From positions 29,822,001 to 29,886,000 of the forward strand of contig JANJGN010000012.1 of the NCBI GenBank assembly GCA_026770705.1: a DNA stretch of 64,000 nucleotides, written 5' to 3'. The stretch is from Isurus oxyrinchus. Its lineage: Eukaryota. The notes beneath the pieces are model-generated. The model was not told the DNA's origin and searched no databases. It worked only from the letters and a program-made list of their open reading frames with translations. The translations under genes and the position numbers were made by a program. Shown here piece after piece: positions 1 through 51,015 of this stretch (the first letter of the stretch is position 1; each line of letters opens with the position of its first letter).

Positions 1-152
1 TTCAACTGCAAATGCTCAGACATCCACAGCAGCAGAAACCTCAACATCAACTTCTGTTTCATCAAGTGCAACAGCACAAACTACAGTGAGGTCCACTAAA
101 ACATCAATAACTGAAACAACAACAGCAACTACTCTAGTCCCATCAAAAAGTG
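1..152 (+). CDS. Partial B-family exon (cut by the window edge)
   Basis: Encodes ..STANAQTSTAAETST..LVPSKS, ending AGTG|GTGAGT at 152/153. Confidence 0.8.
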
Positions 153-3100
153 GTGAGTATACGAAAGTACACTTTGCAGATATTACATTCTCAGTCCAGG
201 CAAAATGCAGGAAGGTAGAAACACATAAAGAAATATGAGAAATGATTCTACTGGTGTGTTGTTGGCTAGCATGATGCATTGGACTATCATGCGCTCATGA
301 CTTTTGGTGAAATACCCTCAGTTAAAAACGAGGCTATGTTAGGTAACTCAGGATCTTCCATTATTTATCAGTTTTACCAAATCATAGAGCATAACCTATG
401 TACATAATCATGTGAAAATGACATTGTTTTGATTAATTCTTTGCATCATGGCCATTTGTTACTTGCTTTGCATATCTGACGAAGAAGGCAACTTTTCAGG
501 TTATAACATAATGATGTTGTTCCAGGCATTATGTATACCCCATTCAGTCTATCTTCAATTTCTATAATAGCAGCAACAGAAATTTCAATTGCAAGTACAC
601 AGACATCCACTACATCAGAAGCCACCACATCAGCTCCTGCATCAAGCAGTACGATAGCGATGACAACTGTTGGGAACTTTACAGATGCATCGACCACTGC
701 GGTAACATCCATCACAACATCACTCCCTTCAACAAGTCGTGAGTACATGAGTCCTGTCTTATCACTTTGACCATCACTAATCCTTCCAGCCCACTCCGAG
801 GTATAACAGATTAAACTGGTGAGAGATCAACTGATTATACCAAGGTGCTGGCTACAATTGCCCCAAGTAGAGTTATGCGCAGATTAGATTTGCTCAGTAC
901 TGTTGTTTCAACATGGCAAGATATGTGACTAATTTTCATGAGCTGGGACTTCTCAGAAGTCGATTCTTTGGGCCTGAATTTTAGAATGTTGTTCCATGCT
1001 TTTTGAGTGCTCCCTTAAGCCGATCACCTCTTTTAATAACAGCAGCAACAGAAACTTCAACTGCAAATGCACAGACATCCACAGCAGCAGAAACCTCAAC
1101 ATCAGCTTCTGTTTCATCAAGTGCAACAGCACAAACTACAGTGAGCTCCACTAAAACATCAATAACTGAAACAACAACAGCAACTACTCTAGTCCCATCA
1201 AAAGTCGTGACTATACGAAAGAACACTTTGCAGATATTACATTCTCAGTCCAGGCAAAATGCAGGAAGGTAGAAACACATAAAGAAATGTGAGAAATGAT
1301 TCTACTAGTGTGTTGTTGGTTAGCATGATGCATTGAACTATCATGCGCTCATGACTTTTGGTGAAATACCCTCAGTGAAAAATCAGGCTACGTTAGGTTC
1401 CTCAGGATCTTCCATTATCGGCTTTACCAAATCATAGAGCATAACCTTTGTACAGAAGCTTTGATGTACTCTCCACGCTCACTGCTTACCTCAATAAAAC
1501 ATTGCCTGTTTGAATGTTGGCAGCAGAAATATCGTATTCAAGTACACAGACATCCACGGCAGCACTGACCTCTACGTCTGCTCCTCCCTCAACAAGTGGA
1601 ACAGCATCAACATCCACCGAAGGCTCTACTGAAGGGTCAACAACTGAAGAATCGACAATCACTACGTCACTCCCAACAACAAGAGGTAAGAAAACAAAAG
1701 CAGTCTTTGCAACCATACCATTATGAATTCATTCAAACAGCTGGATGATAGAATTACTTACACAAAAGCTATTGAAACATTACAGGAGTATGTTGTTGTT
1801 ACACTTTCCCACAGTTAACGTTATGTCAAACTCACTTGGTACACTAACGCTGCCACAATTCCCGGCCACATTATCTTTATTAGTGTGTATGAGTAAATGC
1901 GAGTTCCAACAAAAAGTGGGGCACAACTGTTGTTCAAAAACTATCATATATTGTTTCAACTTTGTCATTCCCCTCAATAATAATATATCCCTTCCTCAAT
2001 CACAGTGGCAGAAGTATCAACAAATACACCGACGTCCACATTAGCACCGACTTCTACACCAGCTTCTGCCACAACAAGTACAATAGCACGAACATCTACA
2101 GCAAGCTCGACAGAAGCATCGACATCTGAGGCAACGACAGTTACAACCTCACTCCCTTCATCAAGTGGTGAGTAGCTGAGTGCTCTCTGCTCAGTTCTAA
2201 CATTCAGATTTCGTTCACATACTGAATGTTGAGAAACAGACAATAGACTTGGAAGAATAGAATATAGCATGAAGTCGGCTATGAATGTGCACAGGACAAT
2301 CACGTGAAAATGACATTGTTTTGATTAATTCTTTGCATCATGGCTATTTGTTACTTGCTTTGCATATCTGACGAAGAAGGCAACTTTTCAGCTATAACAT
2401 AATGATGTTGTTCCAGGCATTATATATAACCCATTCAGTCTATCTTCAATTTCCATAATAGCAGCAACAGAAATTTCAATTGCAAGTACACAGACATCCA
2501 CTACATCAGAAGCCACCACATCAGCTCCTGCGTCAAGCAGTACGATAGCGATGACAACTGCCGGGAACACTACAAATGCATCGACCACTGCAGTAACATC
2601 AATCACAACATCACTCCCTTCAACAAGTGGTGAGTACATGAGTCCTGTCTTATCACTTTGACCATCACTAATCCTTCCAGCCCACTCCGAGGTATAACAG
2701 ACTAAACTGGTGAGAGATCAACTGATTATACCAAGGTGCTGGCTACAATTGCCCCAAGTAGAATAATGCGCAGATGAGATTTGCTCAGTAATGTTTCAAC
2801 ATGGCAAGATATGTGACTAATTTTCATGAGCTGGGCCTTCTCAGAAGTCGATTCTTTGGGCCTGAATTTTAGAATGTTGTTCCATGCTTTTTGAGTGCTC
2901 CCCTGAGCCTATCACCTCTTTTAATAACAGCAGCAACAGAAACTTCAACTGCAAATGCTCAGACATCCACAGCAGCAGAAACCTCAACATCAACTTCTGT
3001 TTCATCAAGTGCAACAGCACAAACTACAGTGAGGTCCACTAAAACATCAATAACTGAAACAACAACAGCAACTACTCTAGTCCCATCAAAAAGTGGTGAG

Positions 3101-6100
3101 TATACGAAAGTACACTTTGCAGATATTACATTCTCAGTCCAGGCAAAATGCAGGAAGGTAGAAACACATAAAGAAATATGAGAAATGATTCTACTGGTGT
3201 GTTGTTGGCTAGCATGATGCATTGGACTATCATGCGCTCATGACTTTTGGTGAAATACCCTCAGTTAAAAACGAGGCTATGTTAGGTAACTCAGGATCTT
3301 CCATTATTTATCAGTTTTACCAAATCATAGAGCATAACCTATGTACATAATCATGTGAAAATGACATTGTTTTGATTAATTCTTTGCATCATGGCCATTT
3401 GTTACTTGCTTTGCATATCTGACGAAGAAGGCAACTTTTCAGGTTATAACATAATGATGTTGTTCCAGGCATTATGTATACCCCATTCAGTCTATCTTCA
3501 ATTTCTATAATAGCAGCAACAGAAATTTCAATTGCAAGTACACAGACATCCACTACATCAGAAGCCACCACATCAGCTCCTGCATCAAGCAGTACGATAG
3601 CGATGACAACTGTTGGGAACTTTACAGATGCATCGACCACTGCGGTAACATCCATCACAACATCACTCCCTTCAACAAGTCGTGAGTACATGAGTCCTGT
3701 CTTATCACTTTGACCATCACTAATCCTTCCAGCCCACTCCGAGGTATAACAGATTAAACTGGTGAGAGATCAACTGATTATACCAAGGTGCTGGCTACAA
3801 TTGCCCCAAGTAGAGTTATGCGCAGATTAGATTTGCTCAGTACTGTTGTTTCAACATGGCAAGATATGTGACTAATTTTCATGAGCTGGGACTTCTCAGA
3901 AGTCGATTCTTTGGGCCTGAATTTTAGAATGTTGTTCCATGCTTTTTGAGTGCTCCCTTAAGCCGATCACCTCTTTTAATAACAGCAGCAACAGAAACTT
4001 CAACTGCAAATGCACAGACATCCACAGCAGCAGAAACCTCAACATCAGCTTCTGTTTCATCAAGTGCAACAGCACAAACTACAGTGAGCTCCACTAAAAC
4101 ATCAATAACTGAAACAACAACAGCAACTACTCTAGTCCCATCAAAAGTCGTGACTATACGAAAGAACACTTTGCAGATATTACATTCTCAGTCCAGGCAA
4201 AATGCAGGAAGGTAGAAACACATAAAGAAATGTGAGAAATGATTCTACTAGTGTGTTGTTGGTTAGCATGATGCATTGAACTATCATGCGCTCATGACTT
4301 TTGGTGAAATACCCTCAGTGAAAAATCAGGCTACGTTAGGTTCCTCAGGATCTTCCATTATCGGCTTTACCAAATCATAGAGCATAACCTTTGTACAGAA
4401 GCTTTGATGTACTCTCCACGCTCACTGCTTACCTCAATAAAACATTGCCTGTTTGAATGTTGGCAGCAGAAATATCGTATTCAAGTACACAGACATCCAC
4501 GGCAGCACTGACCTCTACGTCTGCTCCTCCCTCAACAAGTGGAACAGCATCAACATCCACCGAAGGCTCTACTGAAGGGTCAACAACTGAAGAATCGACA
4601 ATCACTACGTCACTCCCAACAACAAGAGGTAAGAAAACAAAAGCAGTCTTTGCAACCATACCATTATGAATTCATTCAAACAGCTGGATGATAGAATTAC
4701 TTACACAAAAGCTATTGAAACATTACAGGAGTATGTTGTTGTTACACTTTCCCACAGTTAACGTTATGTCAAACTCACTTGGTACACTAACGCTGCCACA
4801 ATTCCCGGCCACATTATCTTTATTAGTGTGTATGAGTAAATGCGAGTTCCAACAAAAAGTGGGGCACAACTGTTGTTCAAAAACTATCATATATTGTTTC
4901 AACTTTGTCATTCCCCTCAATAATAATATATCCCTTCCTCAATCACAGTGGCAGAAGTATCAACAAATACACCGACGTCCACATTAGCACCGACTTCTAC
5001 ACCAGCTTCTGCCACAACAAGTACAATAGCACGAACATCTACAGCAAGCTCGACAGAAGCATCGACATCTGAGGCAACGACAGTTACAACCTCACTCCCT
5101 TCATCAAGTGGTGAGTAGCTGAGTGCTCTCTGCTCAGTTCTAACATTCAGATTTCGTTCACATACTGAATGTTGAGAAACAGACAATAGACTTGGAAGAA
5201 TAGAATATAGCATGAAGTCGGCTATGAATGTGCACAGGACAATCACGTGAAAATGACATTGTTTTGATTAATTCTTTGCATCATGGCTATTTGTTACTTG
5301 CTTTGCATATCTGACGAAGAAGGCAACTTTTCAGCTATAACATAATGATGTTGTTCCAGGCATTATATATAACCCATTCAGTCTATCTTCAATTTCCATA
5401 ATAGCAGCAACAGAAATTTCAATTGCAAGTACACAGACATCCACTACATCAGAAGCCACCACATCAGCTCCTGCGTCAAGCAGTACAATAGCGATGACAA
5501 CTGCCGGGAACACTACAAATGCATCGACCACTGCAGTAACATCAATCACAACATCACTCCCTTCAACAAGTGGTGAGTACATGAGTCCTGTCTTATCACT
5601 TTGACCATCACTAATCCTTCCAGCCCACTCCGAGGTATAACAGACTAAACTGGTGAGAGATCAACTGATTATACCAAGGTGCTGGCTACAATTGCCCCAA
5701 GTAGAATAATGCGCAGATGAGATTTGCTCAGTAATGTTTCAACATGGCAAGATATGTGACTAATTTTCATGAGCTGGGCCTTCTCAGAAGTCGATTCTTT
5801 GGGCCTGAATTTTAGAATGTTGTTCCATGCTTTTTGAGTGCTCCCCTGAGCCTATCACCTCTTTTAATAACAGCAGCAACAGAAACTTCAACTGCAAATG
5901 CTCAGACATCCACAGCAGCAGAAACCTCAACATCAACTTCTGTTTCATCAAGTGCAACAGCACAAACTACAGTGAGGTCCACTAAAACATCAATAACTGA
6001 AACAACAACAGCAACTACTCTAGTCCCATCAAAAAGTGGTGAGTATACGAAAGTACACTTTGCAGATATTACATTCTCAGTCCAGGCAAAATGCAGGAAG

Positions 6101-9100
6101 GTAGAAACACATAAAGAAATATGAGAAATGATTCTACTGGTGTGTTGTTGGCTAGCATGATGCATTGGACTATCATGCGCTCATGACTTTTGGTGAAATA
6201 CCCTCAGTTAAAAACGAGGCTATGTTAGGTAACTCAGGATCTTCCATTATTTATCAGTTTTACCAAATCATAGAGCATAACCTATGTACATAATCATGTG
6301 AAAATGACATTGTTTTGATTAATTCTTTGCATCATGGCCATTTGTTACTTGCTTTGCATATCTGACGAAGAAGGCAACTTTTCAGGTTATAACATAATGA
6401 TGTTGTTCCAGGCATTATGTATACCCCATTCAGTCTATCTTCAATTTCTATAATAGCAGCAACAGAAATTTCAATTGCAAGTACACAGACATCCACTACA
6501 TCAGAAGCCACCACATCAGCTCCTGCATCAAGCAGTACGATAGCGATGACAACTGTTGGGAACTTTACAGATGCATCGACCACTGCGGTAACATCCATCA
6601 CAACATCACTCCCTTCAACAAGTCGTGAGTACATGAGTCCTGTCTTATCACTTTGACCATCACTAATCCTTCCAGCCCACTCCGAGGTATAACAGATTAA
6701 ACTGGTGAGAGATCAACTGATTATACCAAGGTGCTGGCTACAATTGCCCCAAGTAGAGTTATGCGCAGATTAGATTTGCTCAGTACTGTTGTTTCAACAT
6801 GGCAAGATATGTGACTAATTTTCATGAGCTGGGACTTCTCAGAAGTCGATTCTTTGGGCCTGAATTTTAGAATGTTGTTCCATGCTTTTTGAGTGCTCCC
6901 TTAAGCCGATCACCTCTTTTAATAACAGCAGCAACAGAAACTTCAACTGCAAATGCACAGACATCCACAGCAGCAGAAACCTCAACATCAGCTTCTGTTT
7001 CATCAAGTGCAACAGCACAAACTACAGTGAGCTCCACTAAAACATCAATAACTGAAACAACAACAGCAACTACTCTAGTCCCATCAAAAGTCGTGACTAT
7101 ACGAAAGAACACTTTGCAGATATTACATTCTCAGTCCAGGCAAAATGCAGGAAGGTAGAAACACATAAAGAAATGTGAGAAATGATTCTACTAGTGTGTT
7201 GTTGGTTAGCATGATGCATTGAACTATCATGCGCTCATGACTTTTGGTGAAATACCCTCAGTGAAAAATCAGGCTACGTTAGGTTCCTCAGGATCTTCCA
7301 TTATCGGCTTTACCAAATCATAGAGCATAACCTTTGTACAGAAGCTTTGATGTACTCTCCACGCTCACTGCTTACCTCAATAAAACATTGCCTGTTTGAA
7401 TGTTGGCAGCAGAAATATCGTATTCAAGTACACAGACATCCACGGCAGCACTGACCTCTACGTCTGCTCCTCCCTCAACAAGTGGAACAGCATCAACATC
7501 CACCAAAGGCTCTACTGAAGGGTCAACAACTGAAGAATCGACAATCACTACGTCACTCCCAACAACAAGAGGTAAGAAAACAAAAGCAGTCTTTGCAACC
7601 ATACCATTATGAATTCATTCAAACAGCTGGATGATAGAATTACTTACACAAAAGCTATTGAAACATTACAGGAGTATGTTGTTGTTACACTTTCCCACAG
7701 TTAACGTTATGTCAAACTCACTTGGTACACTAACGCTGCCACAATTCCCGGCCACATTATCTTTATTAGTGTGTATGAGTAAATGCGAGTTCCAACAAAA
7801 AGTGGGGCACAACTGTTGTTCAAAAACTATCATATATTGTTTCAACTTTGTCATTCCCCTCAATAATAATATATCCCTTCCTCAATCACAGTGGCAGAAG
7901 TATCAACAAATACACCGACGTCCACATTAGCACCGACTTCTACACCAGCTTCTGCCACAACAAGTACAATAGCACGAACATCTACAGCAAGCTCGACAGA
8001 AGCATCGACATCTGAGGCAACGACAGTTACAACCTCACTCCCTTCATCAAGTGGTGAGTAGCTGAGTGCTCTCTGCTCAGTTCTAACATTCAGATTTCGT
8101 TCACATACTGAATGTTGAGAAACAGACAATAGACTTGGAAGAATAGAATATAGCATGAAGTCGGCTATGAATGTGCACAGGACAATCACGTGAAAATGAC
8201 ATTGTTTTGATTAATTCTTTGCATCATGGCTATTTGTTACTTGCTTTGCATATCTGACGAAGAAGGCAACTTTTCAGCTATAACATAATGATGTTGTTCC
8301 AGGCATTATATATAACCCATTCAGTCTATCTTCAATTTCCATAATAGCAGCAACAGAAATTTCAATTGCAAGTACACAGACATCCACTACATCAGAAGCC
8401 ACCACATCAGCTCCTGCGTCAAGCAGTACGATAGCGATGACAACTGCCGGGAACACTACAAATGCATCGACCACTGCAGTAACATCAATCACAACATCAC
8501 TCCCTTCAACAAGTGGTGAGTACATGAGTCCTGTCTTATCACTTTGACCATCACTAATCCTTCCAGCCCACTCCGAGGTATAACAGACTAAACTGGTGAG
8601 AGATCAACTGATTATACCAAGGTGCTGGCTACAATTGCCCCAAGTAGAATAATGCGCAGATGAGATTTGCTCAGTAATGTTTCAACATGGCAAGATATGT
8701 GACTAATTTTCATGAGCTGGGCCTTCTCAGAAGTCGATTCTTTGGGCCTGAATTTTAGAATGTTGTTCCATGCTTTTTGAGTGCTCCCCTGAGCCTATCA
8801 CCTCTTTTAATAACAGCAGCAACAGAAACTTCAACTGCAAATGCTCAGACATCCACAGCAGCAGAAACCTCAACATCAACTTCTGTTTCATCAAGTGCAA
8901 CAGCACAAACTACAGTGAGGTCCACTAAAACATCAATAACTGAAACAACAACAGCAACTACTCTAGTCCCATCAAAAAGTGGTGAGTATACGAAAGTACA
9001 CTTTGCAGATATTACATTCTCAGTCCAGGCAAAATGCAGGAAGGTAGAAACACATAAAGAAATATGAGAAATGATTCTACTGGTGTGTTGTTGGCTAGCA

Positions 9101-12100
9101 TGATGCATTGGACTATCATGCGCTCATGACTTTTGGTGAAATACCCTCAGTTAAAAACGAGGCTATGTTAGGTAACTCAGGATCTTCCATTATTTATCAG
9201 TTTTACCAAATCATAGAGCATAACCTATGTACATAATCATGTGAAAATGACATTGTTTTGATTAATTCTTTGCATCATGGCCATTTGTTACTTGCTTTGC
9301 ATATCTGACGAAGAAGGCAACTTTTCAGGTTATAACATAATGATGTTGTTCCAGGCATTATGTATACCCCATTCAGTCTATCTTCAATTTCTATAATAGC
9401 AGCAACAGAAATTTCAATTGCAAGTACACAGACATCCACTACATCAGAAGCCACCACATCAGCTCCTGCATCAAGCAGTACGATAGCGATGACAACTGTT
9501 GGGAACTTTACAGATGCATCGACCACTGCGGTAACATCCATCACAACATCACTCCCTTCAACAAGTCGTGAGTACATGAGTCCTGTCTTATCACTTTGAC
9601 CATCACTAATCCTTCCAGCCCACTCCGAGGTATAACAGATTAAACTGGTGAGAGATCAACTGATTATACCAAGGTGCTGGCTACAATTGCCCCAAGTAGA
9701 GTTATGCGCAGATTAGATTTGCTCAGTACTGTTGTTTCAACATGGCAAGATATGTGACTAATTTTCATGAGCTGGGACTTCTCAGAAGTCGATTCTTTGG
9801 GCCTGAATTTTAGAATGTTGTTCCATGCTTTTTGAGTGCTCCCTTAAGCCGATCACCTCTTTTAATAACAGCAGCAACAGAAACTTCAACTGCAAATGCA
9901 CAGACATCCACAGCAGCAGAAACCTCAACATCAGCTTCTGTTTCATCAAGTGCAACAGCACAAACTACAGTGAGCTCCACTAAAACATCAATAACTGAAA
10001 CAACAACAGCAACTACTCTAGTCCCATCAAAAGTCGTGACTATACGAAAGAACACTTTGCAGATATTACATTCTCAGTCCAGGCAAAATGCAGGAAGGTA
10101 GAAACACATAAAGAAATGTGAGAAATGATTCTACTAGTGTGTTGTTGGTTAGCATGATGCATTGAACTATCATGCGCTCATGACTTTTGGTGAAATACCC
10201 TCAGTGAAAAATCAGGCTACGTTAGGTTCCTCAGGATCTTCCATTATCGGCTTTACCAAATCATAGAGCATAACCTTTGTACAGAAGCTTTGATGTACTC
10301 TCCACGCTCACTGCTTACCTCAATAAAACATTGCCTGTTTGAATGTTGGCAGCAGAAATATCGTATTCAAGTACACAGACATCCACGGCAGCACTGACCT
10401 CTACGTCTGCTCCTCCCTCAACAAGTGGAACAGCATCAACATCCACCGAAGGCTCTACTGAAGGGTCAACAACTGAAGAATCGACAATCACTACGTCACT
10501 CCCAACAACAAGAGGTAAGAAAACAAAAGCAGTCTTTGCAACCATACCATTATGAATTCATTCAAACAGCTGGATGATAGAATTACTTACACAAAAGCTA
10601 TTGAAACATTACAGGAGTATGTTGTTGTTACACTTTCCCACAGTTAACGTTATGTCAAACTCACTTGGTACACTAACGCTGCCACAATTCCCGGCCACAT
10701 TATCTTTATTAGTGTGTATGAGTAAATGCGAGTTCCAACAAAAAGTGGGGCACAACTGTTGTTCAAAAACTATCATATATTGTTTCAACTTTGTCATTCC
10801 CCTCAATAATAATATATCCCTTCCTCAATCACAGTGGCAGAAGTATCAACAAATACACCGACGTCCACATTAGCACCGACTTCTACACCAGCTTCTGCCA
10901 CAACAAGTACAATAGCACGAACATCTACAGCAAGCTCGACAGAAGCATCGACATCTGAGGCAACGACAGTTACAACCTCACTCCCTTCATCAAGTGGTGA
11001 GTAGCTGAGTGCTCTCTGCTCAGTTCTAACATTCAGATTTCGTTCACATACTGAATGTTGAGAAACAGACAATAGACTTGGAAGAATAGAATATAGCATG
11101 AAGTCGGCTATGAATGTGCACAGGACAATCACGTGAAAATGACATTGTTTTGATTAATTCTTTGCATCATGGCTATTTGTTACTTGCTTTGCATATCTGA
11201 CGAAGAAGGCAACTTTTCAGCTATAACATAATGATGTTGTTCCAGGCATTATATATAACCCATTCAGTCTATCTTCAATTTCCATAATAGCAGCAACAGA
11301 AATTTCAATTGCAAGTACACAGACATCCACTACATCAGAAGCCACCACATCAGCTCCTGCGTCAAGCAGTACGATAGCGATGACAACTGCCGGGAACACT
11401 ACAAATGCATCGACCACTGCAGTAACATCAATCACAACATCACTCCCTTCAACAAGTGGTGAGTACATGAGTCCTGTCTTATCACTTTGACCATCACTAA
11501 TCCTTCCAGCCCACTCCGAGGTATAACAGACTAAACTGGTGAGAGATCAACTGATTATACCAAGGTGCTGGCTACAATTGCCCCAAGTAGAATAATGCGC
11601 AGATGAGATTTGCTCAGTAATGTTTCAACATGGCAAGATATGTGACTAATTTTCATGAGCTGGGCCTTCTCAGAAGTCGATTCTTTGGGCCTGAATTTTA
11701 GAATGTTGTTCCATGCTTTTTGAGTGCTCCCCTGAGCCTATCACCTCTTTTAATAACAGCAGCAACAGAAACTTCAACTGCAAATGCTCAGACATCCACA
11801 GCAGCAGAAACCTCAACATCAACTTCTGTTTCATCAAGTGCAACAGCACAAACTACAGTGAGGTCCACTAAAACATCAATAATTGAAACAACAACAGCAA
11901 CTACTCTAGTCCCATCAAAAAGTGGTGAGTATACGAAAGTACACTTTGCAGATATTACATTCTCAGTCCAGGCAAAATGCAGGAAGGTAGAAACACATAA
12001 AGAAATATGAGAAATGATTCTACTAGTGTGTTGTTGGCTAGCATGATGCATTGGACTATCATGCGCTCATGACTTTTGGTGAAATACCCTCAGTTAAAAA

Positions 12101-15100
12101 CGAGGCTATGTTAGGTAACTCAGGATCTTCCATTATTTATCAGTTTTACCAAATCATAGAGCATAACCTATGTACATAATCATGTGAAAATGACATTGTT
12201 TTGATTAATTCTTTGCATCATGGCCATTTGTTACTTGCTTTGCATATCTGACGAAGAAGGCAACTTTTCAGGTTATAACATAATGATGTTGTTCCAGGCA
12301 TTATGTATACCCCATTCAGTCTATCTTCAATTTCTATAATAGCAGCAACAGAAATTTCAATTGCAAGTACACAGACATCCACTACATCAGAAGCCACCAC
12401 ATCAGCTCCTGCATCAAGCAGTACGATAGCGATGACAACTGTTGGGAACTTTACAGATGCATCGACCACTGCGGTAACATCCATCACAACATCACTCCCT
12501 TCAACAAGTCGTGAGTACATGAGTCCTGTCTTATCACTTTGACCATCACTAATCCTTCCAGCCCACTCCGAGGTATAACAGATTAAACTGGTGAGAGATC
12601 AACTGATTATACCAAGGTGCTGGCTACAATTGCCCCAAGTAGAGTTATGCGCAGATTAGATTTGCTCAGTACTGTTGTTTCAACATGGCAAGATATGTGA
12701 CTAATTTTCATGGGCTGGGACTTCTCAGAAGTCGATTCTTTGGGCCTGAATTTTAGAATGTTGTTCCATGCTTTTTGAGTGCTCCCTTAAGCCGATCACC
12801 TCTTTTAATAACAGCAGCAACAGAAACTTCAACTGCAAATGCACAGACATCCACAGCAGCAGAAACCTCAACATCAGCTTCTGTTTCATCAAGTGCAACA
12901 GCACAAACTACAGTGAGCTCCACTAAAACATCAATAACTGAAACAACAACAGCAACTACTCTAGTCCCATCAAAAGTCGTGACTATACGAAAGAACACTT
13001 TGCAGATATTACATTCTCAGTCCAGGCAAAATGCAGGAAGGTAGAAACACATAAAGAAATGTGAGAAATGATTCTACTAGTGTGTTGTTGGTTAGCATGA
13101 TGCATTGAACTATCATGCGCTCATGACTTTTGGTGAAATACCCTCAGTGAAAAATCAGGCTACGTTAGGTTCCTCAGGATCTTCCATTATCGGCTTTACC
13201 AAATCATAGAGCATAACCTTTGTACAGAAGCTTTGATGTACTCTCCACGCTCACTGCTTACCTCAATAAAACATTGCCTGTTTGAATGTTGGCAGCAGAA
13301 ATATCGTATTCAAGTACACAGACATCCACGGCAGCACTGACCTCTACGTCTGCTCCTCCCTCAACAAGTGGAACAGCATCAACATCCACCGAAGGCTCTA
13401 CTGAAGGGTCAACAACTGAAGAATCGACAATCACTACGTCACTCCCAACAACAAGAGGTAAGAAAACAAAAGCAGTCTTTGCAACCATACCATTATGAAT
13501 TCATTCAAACAGCTGGATGATAGAATTACTTACACAAAAGCTATTGAAACATTACAGGAGTATGTTGTTGTTACACTTTCCCACAGTTAACGTTATGTCA
13601 AACTCACTTGGTACACTAACGCTGCCACAATTCCCGGCCACATTATCTTTATTAGTGTCTATGAGTAAATGCGAGTTCCAACAAAAAGTGGGGCACAACT
13701 GTTGTTCAAAAACTATCATATATTGTTTCAACTTTGTCATTCCCCTCAATAATAATATATCCCTTCCTCAATCACAGTGGCAGAAGTATCAACAAATACA
13801 CCGACGTCCACATTAGCACCGACTTCTACACCAGCTTCTGCCACAACAAGTACAATAGCACGAACATCTACAGCAAGCTCGACAGAAGCATCGACATCTG
13901 AGGCAACGACAGGTACAACCTCACTCCCTTCATCAAGTGGTGAGTAGCTGAGTGCTCTCTGCTCAGTTCTAACATTCAGATTTCGTTCACATACTGAATG
14001 TTGAGAAACAGACAATAGACTTGGAAGAATAGAATATAGCATGAAGTCGGCTATGAATGTGCACAGGACAATCACGTGAAAATGACATTGTTTTGATTAA
14101 TTCTTTGCATCATGGCTATTTGTTACTTGCTTTGCATATCTGACGAAGAAGGCAACTTTTCAGCTATAACATAATGATGTTGTTCCAGGCATTATATATA
14201 ACCCATTCAGTCTATCTTCAATTTCCATAATAGCAGCAACAGAAATTTCAATTGCAAGTACACAGACATCCACTACATCAGAAGCCACCACATCAGCTCC
14301 TGCGTCAAGCAGTACGATAGCGATGACAACTGCCGGGAACACTACAAATGCATCGACCACTGCAGTAACATCAATCACAACATCACTCCCTTCAACAAGT
14401 GGTGAGTACATGAGTCCTGTCTTATCACTTTGACCATCACTAATCCTTCCAGCCCACTCCGAGGTATAACAGACTAAACTGGTGAGAGATCAACTGATTA
14501 TACCAAGGTGCTGGCTACAATTGCCCCAAGTAGAATAACGCGCAGATGAGATTTGCTCAGTAATGTTTCAACATGGCAAGATATGTGACTAATTTTCATG
14601 AGCTGGGCCTTCTCAGAAGTCGATTCTTTGGGCCTGAATTTTAGAATGTTGTTCCATGCTTTTTGAGTGCTCCCCTGAGCCTATCACCTCTTTTAATAAC
14701 AGCAGCAACAGAAACTTCAACTGCAAATGCTCAGACATCCACAGCAGCAGAAACCTCAACATCAACTTCTGTTTCATCAAGTGCAACAGCACAAACTACA
14801 GTGAGGTCCACTAAAACATCAATAACTGAAACAACAACAGCAACTACTCTAGTCCCATCAAAAAGTGGTGAGTATACGAAAGTACACTTTGCAGATATTA
14901 CATTCTCAGTCCAGGCAAAATGCAGGAAGGTAGAAACACATAAAGAAATATGAGAAATGATTCTACTCGTGTGCTGTTGGCTAGCCTGATGCATTGGACT
15001 ATCATGCGCACATGACTTTTGGTGAAATACCCTCAGTTAAAAACGAGGCTATGTTAGGTTACTCAGGATCTTCCATTATATATCAGTTTTACCAAATCAT

Positions 15101-30100: not shown

Positions 30101-33100
30101 CATCCACAGCAGCAGAAACCTCAACATCAGCTTCTGTTTCATCAAGTGCAACAGCACAAACTACAGTGAGCTCCACTAAAACATCAATAACTGAAACAAC
30201 AACAGCAACTACTCTAGTCCCATCAAATGTCGTGACTATACGAAAGAACACTTTGCAGATATTACATTCTCAGTCCAGGCAAAATGCAGGAAGGTAGAAA
30301 CACATAAAGAAATGTGAGAAATGATTCTACTAGTGTGTTGTTGGTTAGCATGATGCATTGAACTATCATGCGCTCATGACTTTTGGTGAAATACCCTCAG
30401 TGAAAAATCAGGCTACGTTAGGTTCCTCAGGATCTTCCATTATCGGTTTTACCAAATCATAGAGCATAACCTTTGTACAGAAGCTTTGATGTACTCTCCA
30501 CGCTCACTGCTTACCTCAATAAAACATTGCCTGTTTAAATGTTGGCAGCAGAAATATCGTATTCAAGTACACAGACATCCACGGCAGCACTGACCTCTAC
30601 GTCTGCTCCTCCCTCAACAAGTGGAACAGCATCAACATCCACCGAAAGATCTACTGAAGGGTCAATAACTGAAGAATCGACAATCACTACATCACTCCCA
30701 ACAACAAGAGGTAAGAAAACAAAAGCAGTCTTTGCAACCATACCATTATGAATTCATTCAAACAGCTGGATGATAGAATTACTTACACAAAAGCTATTGA
30801 AACATTACAGGAGTATGTTGTTGTTACACTTTCCCACAGTTAACGTTATGTCAAACTCACTTGGTACTCTAACGCTGCCACAATTCCCGGCCACATTATC
30901 TTTATTAGTGTCTATGAGTAAATGCGAGTTCCAACAAAAAGTGGGGCACAACTGTTGTTCAAAAACTATCATATATTGTTTCAACTTTGTCATTCCCCTC
31001 AATAATAATATATCCCTTCCTCAATCACAGTGGCAGAAGTATCAACAAATACACCGACGTCCACATTAGCACCGACTTCTACACCAGCTTCTGCCACAAC
31101 AAGTACAATAGCACGAACATCTACAGCAAGCTCGACAGAAGCATCGACATCTGAGGCAACGACAGTTACAACCTCACTCCCTTCATCAAGTGGTGAGTAG
31201 CTGAGTGCTCTCTAATCAGTTCTAACATTCAGATTTCGTTCACATACTGAATGTTGAGAAACAGACAATAGACTTGGAAGAATAGAATATAGCATGAAGT
31301 CGGCTATGAATGTGCAGAGGACAATCATGTGATAATGACATTGTTTTGATTAATTCTTTGCATCATGGCCATTTGTTACTTGCTTTGAATATCTGACGAA
31401 GAAGGCAACTTTTCAGCTATAATATAAAGATGTTGTTCCGGGCATTATGTATAACCCATTCAGTCTATCTTCAATTTCCATAATAGCAGCAACAGAAATT
31501 TCAATTGCAAGTACACAGACATCCACTACATCAGAAGCCACCACATCAGCTCCTGCGTCAAACAGTACGATAGCGATAACAACTGCTGGGAACTCTACAG
31601 ATGCATCGACCACTGCGGTAACATCAATCACAACATCACTCCCTTCAACAAGTGGTTAGTATATGAGTCCTGTCTTATCACTTTGACCATCACTAATCCT
31701 TCCAGCCCACTCCGAGGTATAACAGATTAAACTGGTGAGAGATCAACTGATTATTCCAAGGTGCTGGCTACAATTGCCCCAAGTAGAATAATGCGCAGAT
31801 GAGATTTGCTCAGTAATGTTGTTTCAACATGGCAAGATATGTGACTAATTTTCATGAGCTGGGCCTGCTCAGAAGTCGATTCTTTGGGCCTAAATTTTAG
31901 AATGTTGTTCCATGCTTTTTGAGTGCTCCCTTAAGCCTATCACCTCTTTTAATAACAGCAGCAACAGAAACTTCAACTGCAAATGCACAGACATCCACAG
32001 CAGCAGAAACCTCAACATCAGCTTCTGTTTCATCAAGTGCAACAGCACAAACTACAGTGAGCTCCACTAAAGCATCAATAATTGAAACAACAACAGCAAC
32101 TACTCTTGTCCCATCAAAAAGTGGTGAGTATACGAAAGTACACTTTGCAGATATTACATTCTCAGTCAAGGCAAAATGCAGAAAGGTAGAAACACATAAA
32201 GAAATGTGAGAAATGATTCTACTAGTGTGTTGTTGACTAGCATGATGCATTGGACTATCATGCGCTCATGACTTTTGGTGAAATACCCTCAGTTAAAAAC
32301 GAGGCTACGTTAGGTTACTCAGGTTCTTCCATTATTTCTCGATATAACCAAATCATAGAGCATAACCTTTGTACAGAAGCTTTGATATACTCTCCATGCT
32401 CACTGCTTACCTCAATAAAACATTGCCTGTTTGAATGTTGGCTGCAGAAATATCGTATTCAAGTACACAGACATCCACGGCAGCACTATCCTCTGCGTCT
32501 GCTCCTCCCTCAACAAGTGGAACAGCATCAACATCCACCGCAGGCTCTACTGAAGGGTCAACAACTGAAGAATCGACAATCACTACGTCACTCCCAACAA
32601 CAAGAGGTAAGAAAACAACAGCACTCTTTACAACCATTCCATTATGAATTCATTCAAACAGCTGGATGATAGAATTACTTACACAAAAGCTATTGAAACA
32701 TTACAGGAGTATGTTGTTGTTACACTTTCCCACAGTTAACGTTATGCCAAACTCTCTTGGTACTCTAACGCCGCCACAATTCTTGGCCACATTATCTTTC
32801 TTAGTGTATTTCCGTAAATGCGAGTTCCAACAAAAAGTGGGGCACATATGTTGTTCAAAACTTTCATATATTGTTCCAACTTTTACATTTCCCTCAATAA
32901 AAATATATCCCTTCCTCAATCACAGTGGCAGAAGCATCAACAACAAATACTCAGACGTCAATAGTAGCACCTACCTCTACATCAGCTCCTGCCACAACAA
33001 GTACAATAGCACCAACGTTTACAGCAAGCTCGACAGAAGCATCGACATCTGAGGCAACGACAGTTACAACCTCACTCCCTTCATCAAGTGGTGAGTAGCT

Positions 33101-36100
33101 GAGTGCTCTCTGCTCAGTTCTAACATTCAGATTTCGTTCACATACTGAATGTTGAGAAACAGACAATAGACTTGGAAGAATAGAATATAGCATCAAGTCG
33201 GCTATGAATGTGCAGAGGACAATCATGTGAAAATGACATTGTTTTGATTAATTCTTTGCATCATGGCCATTTGTTACTTGCTTTGCATATCTGACGAAGA
33301 AGGCAATTTTTCAGCTATAATATAATGACGTTGTTCCAGGCATTATGTATACCCCACTCAGTCTATCTTCAATTTCTATAATAGCAGCAACAGAAATTTC
33401 AATTGCAAGTACACAGACATCCATTACATCAGAAGCCACCACATCAGCTCCTGCGTCAAACAGTACGATAGCGATGACAACTGCTGGGAACTCTACAGAT
33501 GCATCGACCACTGCAGTAACATCAATCACAACATCACTCCATTCAACAAGTGGTGAGTACATGAGCCCTCTCTTATCACTTTGACCATCACTAATCCTTC
33601 CAGCCCACTCCGAGGTATAACAGATTAAACTGGTGAGAGATCAACTGATTATACCAAGGTGCTGGCTACAATTGCCCCATGTAGAGTTATGCGCAGATTA
33701 GATTTGCTCAGTACTGTTGTTTCAACATGGCAAGATTTGTGACTAATTTTCATGAGCTGGGACTTCTCAGAAGTCGATTCTTTGGGCCTGAATTTTAGAA
33801 TGTTATTCCATGCTTTTTGAGTGCTCCCTTAAGCCGATCACCTCTTTTAATAACAGCAGCAACAGAAACTTCAACTGCAAATGCACAGACATCCACAGCA
33901 GCAGAAACCTCAACATCAGCTTCTGTTTCATCAAGTGCAACAGCACAAACTACAGTGAGCTCCACTAAAACATCAATAACTGAAACAACAACAGCAACTA
34001 CTCTAGTCCCATCAATAGTCGTGACTATACGAAAGAACACTTTGCAGATATTACATTCTCAGTCCAGGCAAAATGCAGGAAGGTAGAAACACATAAAGAA
34101 ATGTGAGAAATGATTCTACTAGTGTGTTGTTGGTTAGCATGATGCATTGAACTATCATGCGCTCATGACTTTTGGTGAAATACCCTCAGTGAAAAATCAG
34201 GCTACGTTAGGTTCCTCAGGATCTTCCATTATCGGTTTTACCAAATCATAGAGCATAACCTTTGTACAGAAGCTTTGATGTACTCTCCACGCTCACTGCT
34301 TACCTCAATAAAACATTGCCTGTTTGAATGTTGGCAGCAGAAATATCGTATTCAAGTACACAGACATCCACGGCAGCACTGACCTCTACGTCTGCTCCTC
34401 CCTCAACAAGTGGAACAGCATCAACATCCACCGAAGGCTCTACTGAAGGGTCAACAACTGAAGAATCGACAATCACTACGTCACTCCCAACAACAAGAGG
34501 TAAGAAAACAAAAGCAGTCTTTGCAACCATACCATTATGAATTCATTCAAACAGCTGGATGATAGAATTACTTACACAAAAGCTATTGAAACATTACAGG
34601 AGTATGTTGTTGTTACACTTTCCCACAGTTAACGTTATGTCAAACTCACTTGGTACTCTAACGCTGCCACAATTCCCGGCCACATTATCTTTATTAGTGT
34701 CTATGAGTAAATGCGAGTTCCAACAAAAAGTGGGGCACAACTGTTGTTCAAAAACTATCATATATTGTTCCAACTTTGTCATTCCCCTCAATAATAATAT
34801 ATCCCTTCCTCAATCACAGTGGCAGAAGTATCAACAAATACACCGACGTCCACATTAGCACCGACCTCTACACCAGCTTCTGCCACAACAAGTACAATAG
34901 CACCAACATCTACAGCAAGCTCGACAGAAGCATCGACATCTGAGGCAATGACAGTTACAACCTCACTCCCTTCATCAAGTGGTGAGTAGCTGAGTGCTCT
35001 CTAATCAGTTCTAACATTCAGATTTCGTTCACATACTGAATGTTGAGAAACAGACAATAGACTTGGAAGAATAGAATATAGCATGAAGTCGGCTATGAAT
35101 GTGCAGAGGACAATCATGTGATAATGACATTGTTTTGATTAATTCTTTGCATCATGGCCATTTGTTACTTGCTTTGAATATCTGACGAAGAAGGCAACTT
35201 TTCAGCTATAATATAAAGATGTTGTTCCGGGCATTATGTATAACCCATTCAGTCTATCTTCAATTTCCATAATAGCAGCAACAGAAATTTCAATTGCAAG
35301 TACACAGACATCCACTACATCAGAAGCCACCACATCAGCTCCTGCGTCAAACAGTACGATAGCGATGACAACTGCTGGGAACTCTACAGATGCATCGACC
35401 ACTGCGGTAACATCAATCACAACATCACTCCCTTCAACAAGTGGTTAGTATATGAGTCCTGTCTTATCACTTTGACCATCACTAATCCTTCCAGCCCACT
35501 CCGAGGTATAACAGACTAAACTGGTGAGAGATCAACTGATTATTCCAAGGTGCTGGCTACAATTGCCCCAAGTAGAATAATGCGCAGATGAGATTTGCTC
35601 AGTAATGTTGTTTCAACATGGCAAGATATGTGACTAATTTTCATGAGCTGGGCCTGCTCAGAAGTCGATTCTTTGGGCCTAAATTTTAGAATGTTGTTCC
35701 ATGCTTTTTGAGTGCTCCCTTAAGCCTATCACCTCTTTTAATAACAGCAGCAACAGAAACTTCAACTGCAAATGCACAGACATCCACAGCAGCAGAAACC
35801 TCAACATCAGCTTCTGTTTCATCAAGTGCAACAGCACAAACTACAGTGAGCTCCACTAAAGCATCAATAATTGAAACAACAACAGCAACTACTCTTGTCC
35901 CATCAAAAAGTGGTGAGTATACGAAAGTACACTTTGCAGATATTACATTCTCAGTCAAGGCAAAATGCAGAAAGGTAGAAACACATAAAGAAATGTGAGA
36001 AATGATTCTACTAGTGTGTTGTTGACTAGCATGATGCATTGGACTATCATGCGCTCATGACTTTTGGTGAAATACCCTCAGTTAAAAACGAGGCTACGTT

Positions 36101-39100
36101 AGGTTACTCAGGTTCTTCCATTATTTATCGATATAACCAAATCATAGAGCATAACCTTTGTACAGAAGCTTTGATATACTCTCCATGCTCACTGCTTACC
36201 TCAATAAAACATTGCCTGTTTGAATGTTGGCTGCAGAAATATCGTATTCAAGTACACAGACATCCACGGCAGCACTATCCTCTACGTCTGCTCCTCCCTC
36301 AACAAGTGGAACAGCATCAACATCCACCGCAGGCTCTACTGAAGGGTCAACAACTGAAGAATCGACAATCACTACGTCACTCCCAACAACAAGAGGTAAG
36401 AAAACAACAGCACTCTTTACAACCATTCCATTATGAATTCATTCAAACAGCTGGATGATAGAATTACTTACACAAAAGCTATTGAAACATTACAGGAGTA
36501 TGTTGTTGTTACACTTTCCCACAGTTAACGTTATGCCAAACTCTCTTGGTACTCTAACGATGCCACAATTCTTGGCCACATTATCTTTCTTAGTGTATTT
36601 CCGTAAATGCGAGTTCCAACAAAAAGTGGGGCACATATGTTGTTCAGAACTTTCATATATTGTTCCAACTTTTACATTTCCCTCAATAAAAATATATCCC
36701 TTCCTCAATCACAGTGGCAGAAGCATCAACAACAAATACTCAGACGTCAACAGTAGCACCTACCTCTACATCAGCTCCTGCCACAACAAGTACAATAGCA
36801 CCAACGTTTACAGCAAGCTCGACAGAAGCATCGACATCTGAGGCAACGACAGTTACAACCTCACTCCTTTCATCAAGTGGTGAGTAGCTGAGTGCTCTCT
36901 GCTCAGTTCTAACATTCAGATTTCGTTCACATACTGAATGTTGAGAAACAGACAATAGACTTGGAAGAATAGAATATAGCATGAAGTCGGCTATGAATGT
37001 GCACAGGACAATCATGTGAAAATGACATTGTTTTGATTAATTCTTTGCATCATGGCTATTTGTTACTTGCTTTGCATATCTGACGAAGAAGGCAACTTTT
37101 CAGCTATAACATAATGATGTTGTTCCAGGCATTATATATAACCCATTCAGTCTATCTTCAATTTCCATAATAGCAGCAACAGAAATTTCAATTGCAAGTA
37201 CACAGACATCCACTACATCAGAAGCCACCACATCAGCTCCTGCGTCAAGCAGTACGATAGCGATGACAACTGCCGGGAACACTACAAATGCATCGACCAC
37301 TGCAGTAACATCAATCACAACATCACTCCCTTCAACAAGTGGTGAGTACATGAGTCCTGTCTTATCACTTTGACCATCACTAATCCTTCCAGCCCACTCC
37401 GAGGTATAACAGACTAAACTGGTGAGAGATCAACTGATTATACCAAGGTGCTGGCTACAATTGCCCCAAGTAGAATAATGCGCAGATGAGATTTGCTCAG
37501 TAATGTTTCAACATGGCAAGATATGTGACTAATTTTCATGAGCTGGGCCTTCTCAGAAGTCGATTCTTTGGGCCTGAATTTTAGAATGTTGTTCCATGCT
37601 TTTTGAGTGCTCCCCTGAGCCTATCACCTCTTTTAATAACAGCAGCAACAGAAAATTCAACTGCAAATGCTCAGACATCCACAGCAGCAGAAACCTCAAC
37701 ATCAACTTCTGTTTCATCAAGTGCAACAGCACAAACTACAGTGAGGTCCACTAAAACATCAATAACTGAAACAACAACAGCAACTACTCTAGTCCCATCA
37801 AAAAGTGGTGAGTATACAAAAGTACACTTTGCAGATATTACATTCTCAGTCCAGGCAAAATGCAGGAAGGTAGAAACACATAAAGAAATATGAGAAATGA
37901 TTCTACTAGTGTGCTGTTGGCTAGCCTGATGCATTGGACTATCATGCGCTCATGACTTTTGGTGAAATACCCTCAGTTAAAAACGAGGCTATGTTAGGTT
38001 ACTCAGGATCTTCCATTATATATCAGTTTTACCAAATCATAGAGCATAACCTATGTACATAAACATGTGAAAATGACATTGTTTTGATAAATTCTTTGCA
38101 TCATGGCCATTTGTTACTTGCTTTGCATATCTGACGAAGAAGGCAACTTTTCAGGTTATAACATAATGATGTTGCTCCAGGGATTATGTATACCCCATTC
38201 AGTCTATCTTCAATTTCTATAATAACAGCAACAGAAATTTCAATTGCAAGTACACAGACATCCACTACATCAGAAGCCACCACATCAGCTCCTGCGTCAA
38301 GCAGTACGATAGCGATGACAAATGCCGGGAACTCTACAGATGCATCGACCACTGCGGTAACATCCATCACAACATCACTCCCTTCAACAAGTGGTGAGTA
38401 TATGAGTCCTGTCTTATCACTTTGACCATCACTAATCCTTCCAGCCCACTCCGAGGTATAACAGATTAAACTGGTGAGAGATCAACTGATTATACCAAGG
38501 TGCTGGCTACAATTGCCCCAAGTAGAGTTATGCGCAGATTAGATTTGCTCAGTACTGTTGTTTCAACATGGCAAGATATGTGACTAATTTTCATGAGCTG
38601 GGACTTCTCAGAAGTCGATTCTTTGGGCCTGAATTTTAGAATGTTGTTCCATGCTTTTTGAGTGCTCCCTTAAGCCGATCACCTCTTTTAATAACAGCAG
38701 CAACAGAAACTTCAACTGCAAATGCACAGACATCCACAGCAGCAGAAACCTCAACATCAGCTTCTGTTTCATCAAGTGCAACAGCACAAACTACAGTGAG
38801 CTCCACTAAAACATCAATAACTGAAACAACAACAGCAACTACTCTAGTCCCATCAAATGTCGTGACTATACGAAAGAACACTTTGCAGATATTACATTCT
38901 CAGTCCAGGCAAAATGCAGGAAGGTAGAAACACATAAAGAAATGTGAGAAATGATTCTACTAGTGTGTTGTTGGTTAGCATGATGCATTGAACTATCATG
39001 CGCTCATGACTTTTGGTGAAATACCCTCAGTGAAAAATCAGGCTACGTTAGGTTCCTCAGGATCTTCCATTATCGGTTTTACCAAATCATAGAGCATAAC

Positions 39101-42100
39101 CTTTGTACAGAAGCTTTGATGTACTCTCCACGCTCACTGCTTACCTCAATAAAACATTGCCTGTTTGAATGTTGGCAGCAGAAATATCGTATTCAAGTAC
39201 ACAGACATCCACGGCAGCACTGACCTCTACGTCTGCTCCTCCCTCAACAAGTGGAACAGCATCAACATGCACCGAAGGCTCTACTGAAGGGTCAACAACT
39301 GAAGAATCGACAATCACTACGTCACTCCCAACAACAAGAGGTAAGAAAACAAAAGCAGTCTTTGCAACCATACCATTATGAATTCATTCAAACAGCTGGA
39401 TGATAGAATTACTTACACAAAAGCTATTGAAACATTACAGGAGTATGTTGTTGTTACACTTTCCCACAGTTAACGTTATGTCAAACTCACTTGGTACACT
39501 AATGCTGCCACAATTCCCGGCCACATTATCTTTATTAGTGTGTATGAGTAAATGCGAGTTCCAACAAAAAGTGGGGCACAACTGTTGTTCAAAAACTATC
39601 ATATATTGTTTCAACTTTGTCATTCCCCTCAATAATAATATATCCCTTCCTCAATCACAGTGGCAGAAGTATCAACAAATACACCGACGTCCACATTAGC
39701 ACCGACTTCTACACCAGCTTCTGCCACAACAAGTACAATAGCACGAACATCTACAGCAAGCTCGACAGAAGCATCGACATCTGAGGCAACGACAGGTACA
39801 ACCTCACTCCCTTCATCAAGTGGTGAGTAGCTGAGTGCTCTCTGCTCAGTTCTAACATTCAGATTTCGTTCACATACTGAATGTTGAGAAACAGACAATA
39901 GACTTGGAAGAATAGAATATAGCATTAAGTCGGCTATGAATGTGCACAGGACAATCATGTGAAAATGACATTGTTTTGATTAATTCTTTGCATCATGGCT
40001 ATTTGTTACTTGCTTTGCATATCTGACGAAGAAGGCAACTTTTCAGCTATAACATAATGATGTTGTTCCAGGCATTATATATAACCCATTCAGTCTATCT
40101 TCAATTTCCATAATAGCAGCAACAGAAATTTCAATTGCAAGTACACAGACATCCACTACATCAGAAGCCACCACATCAGCTCCTGCGTCAAGCAGTACGA
40201 TAGCGATGACAACTGCCGGGAACACTACAAATGCATCGACCACTGCAGTAACATCAATCACAACATCACTCCCTTCAACAAGTGGTGAGTACATGAGTCC
40301 TGTCTTATCACTTTGACCATCACTAATCCTTCCAGCCCACTCCGAGGTATAACAGACTAAACTGGTGAGAGATCAACTGATTATACCAAGGTGCTGTCTA
40401 CAATTGCCCCAAGTAGAATAACGCGCAGATGAGATTTGCTCAGTAATGTTTCAACATGGCAAGATATGTGACTAATTTTCATGAGCTGGGCCTTCTCAGA
40501 AGTCGATTCTTTGGGCCTGAATTTTAGAATGTTGTTCCATGCTTTTTGAGTGCTCCCCTGAGCCTATCACCTCTTTTAATAACAGCAGCAACAGAAACTT
40601 CAACTGCAAATGCTCAGACATCCACAGCAGCAGAAACCTCAACATCAACTTCTGTTTCATCAAGTGCAACAGCACAAACTACAGTGAGGTCCACTAAAAC
40701 ATCAATAACTGAAACAACAACAGCAACTACTCTAGTCCCATCAAAAAGTGGTGAGTATACAAAAGTACACTTTGCAGATATTACATTCTCAGTCCAGGCA
40801 AAATGCAGGAAGGTAGAAACACATAAAGAAATATGAGAAATGATTCTACTAGTGTGCTGTTGGCTAGCCTGATGCATTGGACTATCATGCGCTCATGACT
40901 TTTGGTGAAATACCCTCAGTTAAAAATGAGGCTATGTTAGGTTACTCAGGATCTTCCATTATATATCAGTTTTACCAAATCATAGAGCATAACCTATGTA
41001 CATAAACATGTGAAAATGACATTGTTTTGATAAATTCTTTGCATCATGGCCATTTGTTACTTGCTTTGCATATCTGACGAAGAAGGCAACTTTTCAGGTT
41101 ATAACATAATGATGTTGCTCCAGGGATTATGTATACCCCATTCAGTCTATCTTCAATTTCTATAATAACAGCAACAGAAATTTCAATTGCAAGTACACAG
41201 ACATCCACTACATCAGAAGCCACCACATCAGCTCCTGCGTCAAGCAGTACGATAGCGATGACAACTGCCGGGAACTCTACAGATGCATCGACCACTGCGG
41301 TAACATCCATCACAACATCACTCCCTTCAACAAGTGGTGAGTATATGAGTCCTGTCTTATCACTTTGACCATCACTAATCCTTCCAGCCCACTCCGAGGT
41401 ATAACAGATTAAACTGGTGAGAGATCAACTGATTATACCAAGGTGCTGGCTACAATTGCCCCAAGTAGAGTTATGCGCAGATTAGATTTGCTCAGTACTG
41501 TTGTTTCAACATGGCAAGATATGTGACTAATTTTCATCAGCTGGGACTTCTCAGAAGTCGATTCTTTGGGCCTGAATTTTAGAATGTTGTTCCATGCTTT
41601 TTGAGTGCTCCCTTAAGCCGATCACCTCTTTTAATAACAGCAGCAACAGAAACTTCAACTGCAAATGCACAGACATCCACAGCAGCAGAAACCTCAACAT
41701 CAGCTTCTGTTTCATCAAGTGCAACAGCACAAACTACAGTGAGCTCCACTAAAACATCAATAACTGAAACAACAACAGCAACTACTCTAGTCCCATCAAA
41801 TGTCGTGACTATACGAAAGAACACTTTGCAGATATTACATTCTCAGTCCAGGCAAAATGCAGGAAGGTAGAAACACATAAAGAAATGTGAGAAATGATTC
41901 TACTAGTGTGTTGTTGGTTAGCATGATGCATTGAACTATCATGCGCTCATGACTTTTGGTGAAATACCCTCAGTGAAAAATCAGGCTACGTTAGGTTCCT
42001 CAGGATCTTCCATTATCGGTTTTACCAAATCATAGAGCATAACCTTTGTACAGAAGCTTTGATGTACTCTCCACGCTCACTGCTTACCTCAATAAAACAT

Positions 42101-50984: not shown

Positions 50985-51015
<31 letters not shown>

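Follow-up and report, generated by a model that had tools for sequence, protein, structure and literature searches.

The window analysed here, a 64,000-nucleotide (nt) stretch of Isurus oxyrinchus contig JANJGN010000012.1, covers part of a mucin-16-like gene copy, the repeat array of which (array 1; 1..60298 on the forward strand within the window) consists of phase-1 exons of 162–168 nt, of types A to D, separated by introns of ~300 nt and encoding a domain that is 61% Ser, Thr and Pro. A variant of the B exon, here called B′, carries a 1-nt deletion and a damaged splice donor and is present in 18 copies. We propose, with moderate confidence, that B′, a mucin repeat exon copy with a decayed donor, is likely skipped, and that its frameshift is likely a harmless passenger of tandem repeat expansion. 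Coordinates are relative to the window throughout; values below 1 or above 64000 lie in neighbouring DNA of the contig, and the contig position is the coordinate plus 29,822,000.

Copies and coding consequences of B′

B′ lies on the forward strand at 1043..1206, 3986..4149, 6929..7092, 9872..10035, 12815..12978, 15758..15921, 19547..19710, 23336..23499, 27125..27288, 30068..30231, 33857..34020, 38698..38861 and 41641..41804, the last of the 18 copies, and the DNA upstream of the window holds five others, at −24927, −20382, −7786, −4843 and −1900. Each is 164 nt long and combines an intact acceptor with the donor GTC/GTGACT (the slash marks the exon end). The first-pass annotation of the window had reported the 13 copies within it, and the starts, length, acceptor and donor that it gave are all exact. 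In five copies (those starting at 15758, 30068, 33857, 38698 and 41641), a T breaks the A-run that holds the deletion, yet the exon length remains 164 nt. The normal B exon that serves as reference (2931..3095, forward strand) has 165 nt and the donor GTG/GTGAGT, and B′ descends from it. When 184 of the 190 units of array 1 were mapped end to end, 166 had lengths that are multiples of three, and the other 18 were all B′.

The copies sit in units of 2,943 and 3,789 base pairs (bp), seven of which differ by 0–4 bases, and in the 2,943-bp unit B′ is preceded by an in-frame A exon, A′ (571..738, forward strand), with the weakened donor GTC/GTGAGT (−7.2 kcal/mol). Across all units that hold B′, differences reach 4%, and the B′ copies themselves differ by 1.5% on average. 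B′ is absent from a second array of the same kind downstream (array 2).

Splicing of B′ to C would give CAG AAA TAT ... CAC TGA, a premature stop 14 codons into C with further exon junctions downstream, whereas reading through the donor ends in SRQNAGR at a TAG (1270..1272, forward strand) that stands at an equal offset in 18 of 18 copies. The first-pass annotation had described both outcomes correctly, and its conclusion that full-length protein requires skipping of B′ is supported by what follows.

Donor damage and the order of events

The donor of the first B′ copy (1207..1212, forward strand) is damaged by two substitutions, −1 G>C at 1206 and +5 G>C at 1211. The loss of the exon-end G adds to what was known from the first-pass annotation, as does an AATAAA hexamer behind every copy. 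We scored donors by a simple duplex energy (ViennaRNA) with the U1 end. All 18 B′ donors pair at −1.7 kcal/mol, compared with −7 to −12 kcal/mol in 161 of the 166 other mapped exons. Judged from sequence alone, B′ has an intact acceptor but, with neither −1G nor +5G, does not have two usable splice sites. Both guanines were absent from 6 of 1,990 introns in a human set (0.3%, a figure for human introns; PMC8283771).

A search for a phase-1 donor in B′ that would restore the frame, which the first-pass annotation had recognized as a possible oversight, found none that is credible, the sole open in-frame GT (after 1120) pairing with U1 at −2.5 kcal/mol. Two cryptic donors, after 1140 (−4.6 kcal/mol) and after 1268 (−6.5 kcal/mol), are out of frame. 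Rescue by an acceptor at 1550 within C was rejected; this acceptor is weak, and it would restore the frame only together with a dead or cryptic donor.

Three related forms of the exon indicate when the deletion arose. A sister exon at 51467..51631 (forward strand) has the full 165 nt, is in frame and has the donor GTC/GTGAAT, which also lacks −1G and +5G, and it shares the −1C and +16A markers with B′. These two markers are common to B′ (18 copies), to a form in which the donor GT has become CT (two copies, at −16886 and −13391) and to the GTGAAT form (one copy); the two sister forms are in frame and have no deletion. By parsimony, −1 G>C came first and was followed by three different further changes to the donor, only one of them with the deletion. 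On these markers, the 1-nt deletion is a late event on an already weakened donor, although its order relative to +5C is not resolvable. In a tree of 39 distinct B units, 17 of the 18 B′ copies grouped together and the three donor-damaged forms were not united. This discord probably reflects the mosaic nature of the units, and the order of events is based on the shared markers and not on the tree.

Maintenance of the reading frame in array exons

We compared observed and expected stop codons in array-1 exons between −31 and 61 kilobases (kb) with working donors, defined as −7 kcal/mol or stronger, and in array 2 at 86–163 kb. The array-1 working exons contained no stop in 267 distinct substitutions, against 8.1–11.0 expected (P = 2e-5 to 3e-4), and their amino-acid changes were near neutral (ratio ~0.8); array 2 contained one stop against 14.7–15.9 expected. 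Among units within 4.5, 5.5 and 6.5% of each other, thresholds that approximate the age of the duplication described below, there were no stops against 3.2, 4.4 and 5.1 expected (P = 0.042, 0.0125 and 0.006), although single linkage may bring in older variants.

Small insertions and deletions (indels) follow the same pattern. Of four called in exons, the two in working exons are of 3 nt and the sole frameshift is that of B′, whereas most indels in introns are not multiples of three (34 of 39, and in the homogenised zone 11 of 13). The other frame-breaking remnants in array 1 also lack a splice site. B′ thus has the marks of a dead exon copy: its ancestor was a coding exon, one of its splice sites is gone, and its lesion is one that working neighbours do not tolerate. 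Since exons with working donors contain neither stops nor small frameshifts, the frame matters, and B′ is therefore most likely skipped. Translation of array 1 has probably continued since the duplication, and a translated array cannot often include B′.

Probable skipping of B′

Without a usable donor, B′ would not be defined as an exon, and the donor of the upstream A exon would join the C acceptor. Since all exons are phase 1-1, such skipping keeps the frame. The whole unit, B′ included, would have been multiplied by unequal crossing-over or gene conversion. The array would be translated, its own first exon being the most likely start, and its transcript would continue by splicing into exons of the downstream copy. 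In a human series of 148 events caused by splice-site variants, skipping was the commonest outcome (70), followed by use of cryptic sites (44) and intron retention (29) (PMC9925382).

Several points weigh against this proposal. Skipping is deduced from the sequence and not observed, and the donor score is a simple duplex energy set beside a human frequency (0.3%). Cryptic sites and retention together (44 + 29 of 148) exceed skipping in the human series (PMC9925382), and B′ has out-of-frame cryptic donors (after 1140 and 1268) and a short intron of 317 nt. A stop and AATAAA stand behind 18 of 18 B′ copies and behind both other amplified donor-less lineages at the locus. The stop test has no power in the youngest units (0 against 1.4–2.3 expected), and a remnant at −38748, outside the tested range, has a stop behind a moderate donor (−7.4 kcal/mol), with the same stop in its duplicate at 81119. 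Finally, computed leaks of 1, 5 and 10% per copy over 18 copies leave 84, 40 and 15% of transcripts whole; as a 5% leak already leaves only 40% intact, strict neutrality requires very tight skipping.

Other dead and weakened exons at the locus

Dead exons have been amplified elsewhere at the locus. Array 1 contains four copies of a truncated C exon, one of them at 55722..55752 (forward strand), in which the acceptor is kept, the donor is deleted and a derived AATAAA lies behind. An upstream paralog, which has a first exon, SEA exons and terminal exons, carries 11 copies (−161001 to −137762), in a periodic unit, of an exon that died by a GT>CT change, each followed by a stop and by AATAAA ~75 nt on; this exon is unrelated to B′. 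Amplified dead exons are therefore not unique to B′, and since donor-less exons have been amplified elsewhere at the locus, amplification needs neither a frameshift nor a special role.

Weakened splice sites also recur among the exons of array 1. In tandem acceptors the first AG is mutated and an AG 3 nt on would keep the frame, in A exons at 15286, 29596, 38226, 41169 and 49805 and in C exons at 18135, 21924, 25713, 32445, 36234 and 44018; these variants, too, are amplified. Six A exons have the weakened donor GTG/GTTAGT (17177, 20966, 24755, 31487, 35276 and 43060) and eight in the array have the GTC/GTGAGT donor of the exon at 571–738. The weak-donor A exons could be partly skipped, varying mucin length in frame.

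Structure of the locus

Array 1 comprises 190 repeat units and array 2 comprises 172, of ~55 amino acids (aa) each. The locus consists, in order, of a first exon and array 1, a duplication junction, and a second first exon followed by array 2, SEA exons, a membrane exon and a stop, with an SEA domain found at 225.8 kb. With the SEA exon as query, 39 candidates included 14 cartilaginous-fish proteins, of which 13 are labelled mucin-16-like and the best show 95–96% identity. Protein P0001 aligns with successive exons between 169 and 241 kb, covering the SEA repeats, the membrane segment and the last exon, with 82–100% identity in the SEA and membrane exons. It has eight SEA domains, and its four best matches among solved structures are MUC16-type SEA domains. 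In one P0001 repeat, 18 residues separate the cysteine pair present in each SEA repeat (counted by eye), compared with 19 in a human MUC16 SEA repeat (PMC10829539). The locus thus has the layout of a MUC16-type membrane mucin, a Ser/Thr/Pro domain followed by several SEA domains and a membrane segment, and the name mucin-16-like is taken from the NCBI labels of the homologs and from the PDB matches, not from a tree or synteny. A gel-forming mucin was considered and rejected, as no VWD match among the 150 listed, out of 152, falls on this contig. As a protein query, the repeat exon gave no match among 809 candidates, and it has no family in Pfam.

A candidate first exon (70 nt, phase 1, with an ATG and a hydrophobic stretch) occurs at −56586 and again at 65756; the array-1 copy is intact, and a 400-bp comparison with its downstream counterpart gives 97.5% identity. 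Its assignment as a first exon is supported because a homolog at −176339 (73% identity, E = 2e-40) heads the upstream paralog. The last repeat exon of array 1 (60131..60298, forward strand) has a strong donor, and no 3′ exons of its own lie behind it. The junction of a ~122-kb tandem duplication falls at 60416..60417, inside a high-copy repeat: from 60417 onwards the sequence repeats the stretch from −61959 at 93–95% identity. The first exon and the Ser/Thr array were duplicated; the SEA and membrane exons were not. No SEA or membrane exon is present between 60.4 and 86 kb, and the copy that holds B′ is therefore without a 3′ end of its own. The listed contigs of a sequencing run of genomic DNA (X1) do not bridge the junction, which is uninformative since the junction lies in the high-copy repeat. 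The simplest inference from this arrangement is that the array-1 transcript splices on into array 2. The read-through product would have ~8,900 + 8,400 aa of Ser/Thr repeats plus the SEA part, ~18,500 aa in all from ~320 repeat exons, with two possible promoters.

Further features accompany these genes. The downstream copy contains, at 169000–181200, a duplication of its first SEA unit together with some ten diverged Ser/Thr exons, so that Ser/Thr exons occur again behind an SEA domain. Upstream, the same strand carries three or more additional SEA-repeat genes (−485000 to −94500), in one of which the Ser/Thr/Pro repeats seemingly form one long uninterrupted stretch near −299 to −293 kb, with no short exons. 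At the second first exon, an AG lies 17 nt ahead of the ATG; as an acceptor it would define a phase-preserving internal exon of 87 nt (65739–65825) in frame with the ATG, possibly by chance (by eye). An A–B intron contains a ~1.2-kb insertion resembling a repeat element (~50020–51195), bounded by a short direct repeat (by eye) and containing a segment that is repeated within it, and a 35-bp tandem repeat of ~9 copies at 62050–62366 is high-copy genome-wide by contig depth.

Possible intronic polyadenylation behind B′

The alternative that survives best is that B′ acts as an alternative last exon that is leaky: its acceptor would be used, U1 would not be recruited by the dead donor, and the transcript would be read to the TAG at +64 and cleaved at AATAAA, with the frameshift incidental. 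Each copy would then end a small share of transcripts, yielding a ladder of anchorless secreted mucins of 649–7,083 aa, immune to nonsense-mediated decay (NMD). We regard this as possible, though rather unlikely.

The sequence behind B′ has much of what such an exon would need. An AATAAA in the B′–C intron (1493..1498, forward strand), 31 nt before the C acceptor, has two TGTA motifs within 60 nt upstream and recurs behind 18 of 18 copies; indeed, all 18 B′ and the three sister copies are followed by a stop and by AATAAA at this distance. The intact acceptor, weak donor, in-frame stop and AATAAA with upstream UGUA together correspond to a composite last exon. Across the locus, 36 of 39 exons with a dead donor and an intact acceptor have AATAAA behind them, compared with 63 of 324 introns that have a strong donor, and by origin the hexamer follows three of three amplified lineages and none of three single copies. 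It is derived in the truncated-C lineage (four of four copies, against none at the same place in 33 intact array-1 C–D introns), and two upstream TGTA motifs are found behind 21 of 21 dead-donor B exons but only one of 11 normal B–C introns. The gene copy, moreover, lacks its own SEA, membrane and stop exons. Soluble FLT1 is reported as an example of intronic polyadenylation in a membrane-protein gene. Donor variants cause intronic polyadenylation in human cancers (PMC8501991), and those cases resemble B′ in the lost U1 site, the in-frame stop, the AATAAA in the next intron and the membrane-protein gene, but at B′ the arrangement is inherited, present 18 times and tied to a short intron, and the signal is known from the sequence. 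With a stop and AATAAA behind all three amplified lineages and no 3′ end of the copy's own, B′ may therefore leak transcripts encoding short secreted mucins.

Other observations weaken this case. The pattern was seen post hoc and has six independent origins, so that P values at the level of copies or clusters are inflated by descent. The hexamer is ancestral in B–C introns (10 of 11 normal ones), stands in 17 of 44 working introns of the paralog and appears in 21% of shuffled introns. The downstream element is weak: its GU-rich stretch is short, serves also as the C acceptor and gives way to A/C-rich exon sequence. Polyadenylated introns were longer than retained ones in the human cancers (PMC8501991), compared with 317 nt here. 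Stops are depleted downstream of the first B′, and termination must therefore be slight. No further tandem exon array suitable for a pre-set test of the AATAAA association was present in the next 200 kb upstream or in the next paralogs. The periodic terminator envisaged by the first-pass annotation thus persists in the form of intronic polyadenylation at AATAAA, but the frameshift has no part in it, as it would shift the read-through stop by only 20 nt. An extension of this idea, which we put forward still more tentatively and consider doubtful, is that mucin-16-like genes of sharks use amplified donor-less exons as periodic terminators, a state reached three times at this locus, and that the number and position of dead exons set the sizes of the secreted mucins.

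Inactive copy, poison exon and assembly error

It is improbable that the upstream copy is a recently inactivated duplicate in which B′ is tolerated regardless of its splicing. The copy is indeed a 3′-truncated duplicate that ends in an intron at 60416, and selection is undetectable in its youngest units for want of power. However, its candidate first exon is intact and nearly identical to the downstream one, stops are depleted among post-duplication variants at the 4.5–6.5% thresholds (P = 0.04 to 0.006, by single linkage), and exons with working donors contain no small frameshifts.

The first-pass annotation had presented B′ as a poison exon, possibly a switch for NMD. In such a case B′ would be spliced in at GTGACT under some condition and the mRNA directed to NMD. 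The premature stop in C, the intact acceptor, the remaining GT and the 18 copies, which amplify any inclusion rate, accord with this. We nevertheless consider it very improbable, as the donor lacks both guanines and pairs so weakly with U1, B′ is young and has no copy in the sister array, the deletion came late, and sister copies lost the GT or kept the frame, which would be intolerable for a switch. Poison exons such as that of TRA2B are spliced in and regulated, and are ultra-conserved in splicing-factor genes (PMC12632421). Inclusion of B′ would likewise bring a premature stop, but B′ is a young, multi-copy exon lacking both donor guanines, with copies that differ by 1.5% on average, unlike the conserved poison exons described there (PMC12632421). 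Run X1 covers the exons and introns of the unit, and three of its contigs show the normal G at 1206 and 1211, two of them with the fifth A; this counts weakly against a switch, as contigs cannot show absence. In low-copy pieces X1 differs from the window at 9 of 328, 4 of 227 and 3 of 122 bases (2–3%) and probably represents a relative or the other duplicate. Of the remaining runs, X2, X5 and X6 gave no match to the array unit and X3 and X4 matched only repeat-element stretches behind the array, results without bearing on expression. Among the three options that the first-pass annotation offered, the hitch-hiking dead exon fits best.

Assembly error is barely credible as the source of the missing base or of the copy number: the deletion does lie in a run of five A's, and several 2,943-bp units are identical or no more than 4 bases apart, so that their number could be off, but a homopolymer consensus error is unlikely because all 18 B′ copies combine the missing base with the −1C/+5C haplotype, the run of five A's is complete in three sister copies that share the GTC end, and the five copies with an interrupted run are still short. 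B′ is also present in units up to 4% apart.

Comparison with known mucins and implications

The locus resembles MUC16 (CA125) and shark mucin-16-like proteins in its Ser/Thr domain, tandem SEA domains and membrane segment near the C terminus. In mammalian MUC16 the Ser/Thr domain is encoded by a few very large exons, whereas here it is encoded by short exons, hundreds in number, and a duplication has copied the gene's 5′ half, first exon included. Closer in exon structure is chicken Muc13, a membrane mucin with a Ser/Thr domain (the PTS domain) of near-identical exons, one per repeat, whose authors propose that alternative splicing varies its length (PMC1552070). That gene has 12 or more 20-aa repeats and a single SEA domain, compared with ~190 + 172 exons of ~55 aa, several SEA domains and amplified dead exons here, and dead exon copies are not mentioned in the available part of the report (PMC1552070). 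Among the papers listed by searches of the open-access literature, none reports this locus or dead exons amplified within a mucin array.

If B′ is a skipped passenger, it represents an ordinary but clean case of dead exons riding in exon-repeat arrays, in which ~99% skipping per copy is required for 18 copies in series to keep ~84% of transcripts whole. For annotation, it serves as a warning that a frameshifted exon present 18 times does not make this mucin a pseudogene. If, instead, the amplified donor-less exons do act as terminators, repeat copy number would directly tune the length of the mucin and the ratio of its secreted to membrane forms, and the idea raised for chicken Muc13, that exon-built domains vary in length through RNA processing, would become testable.

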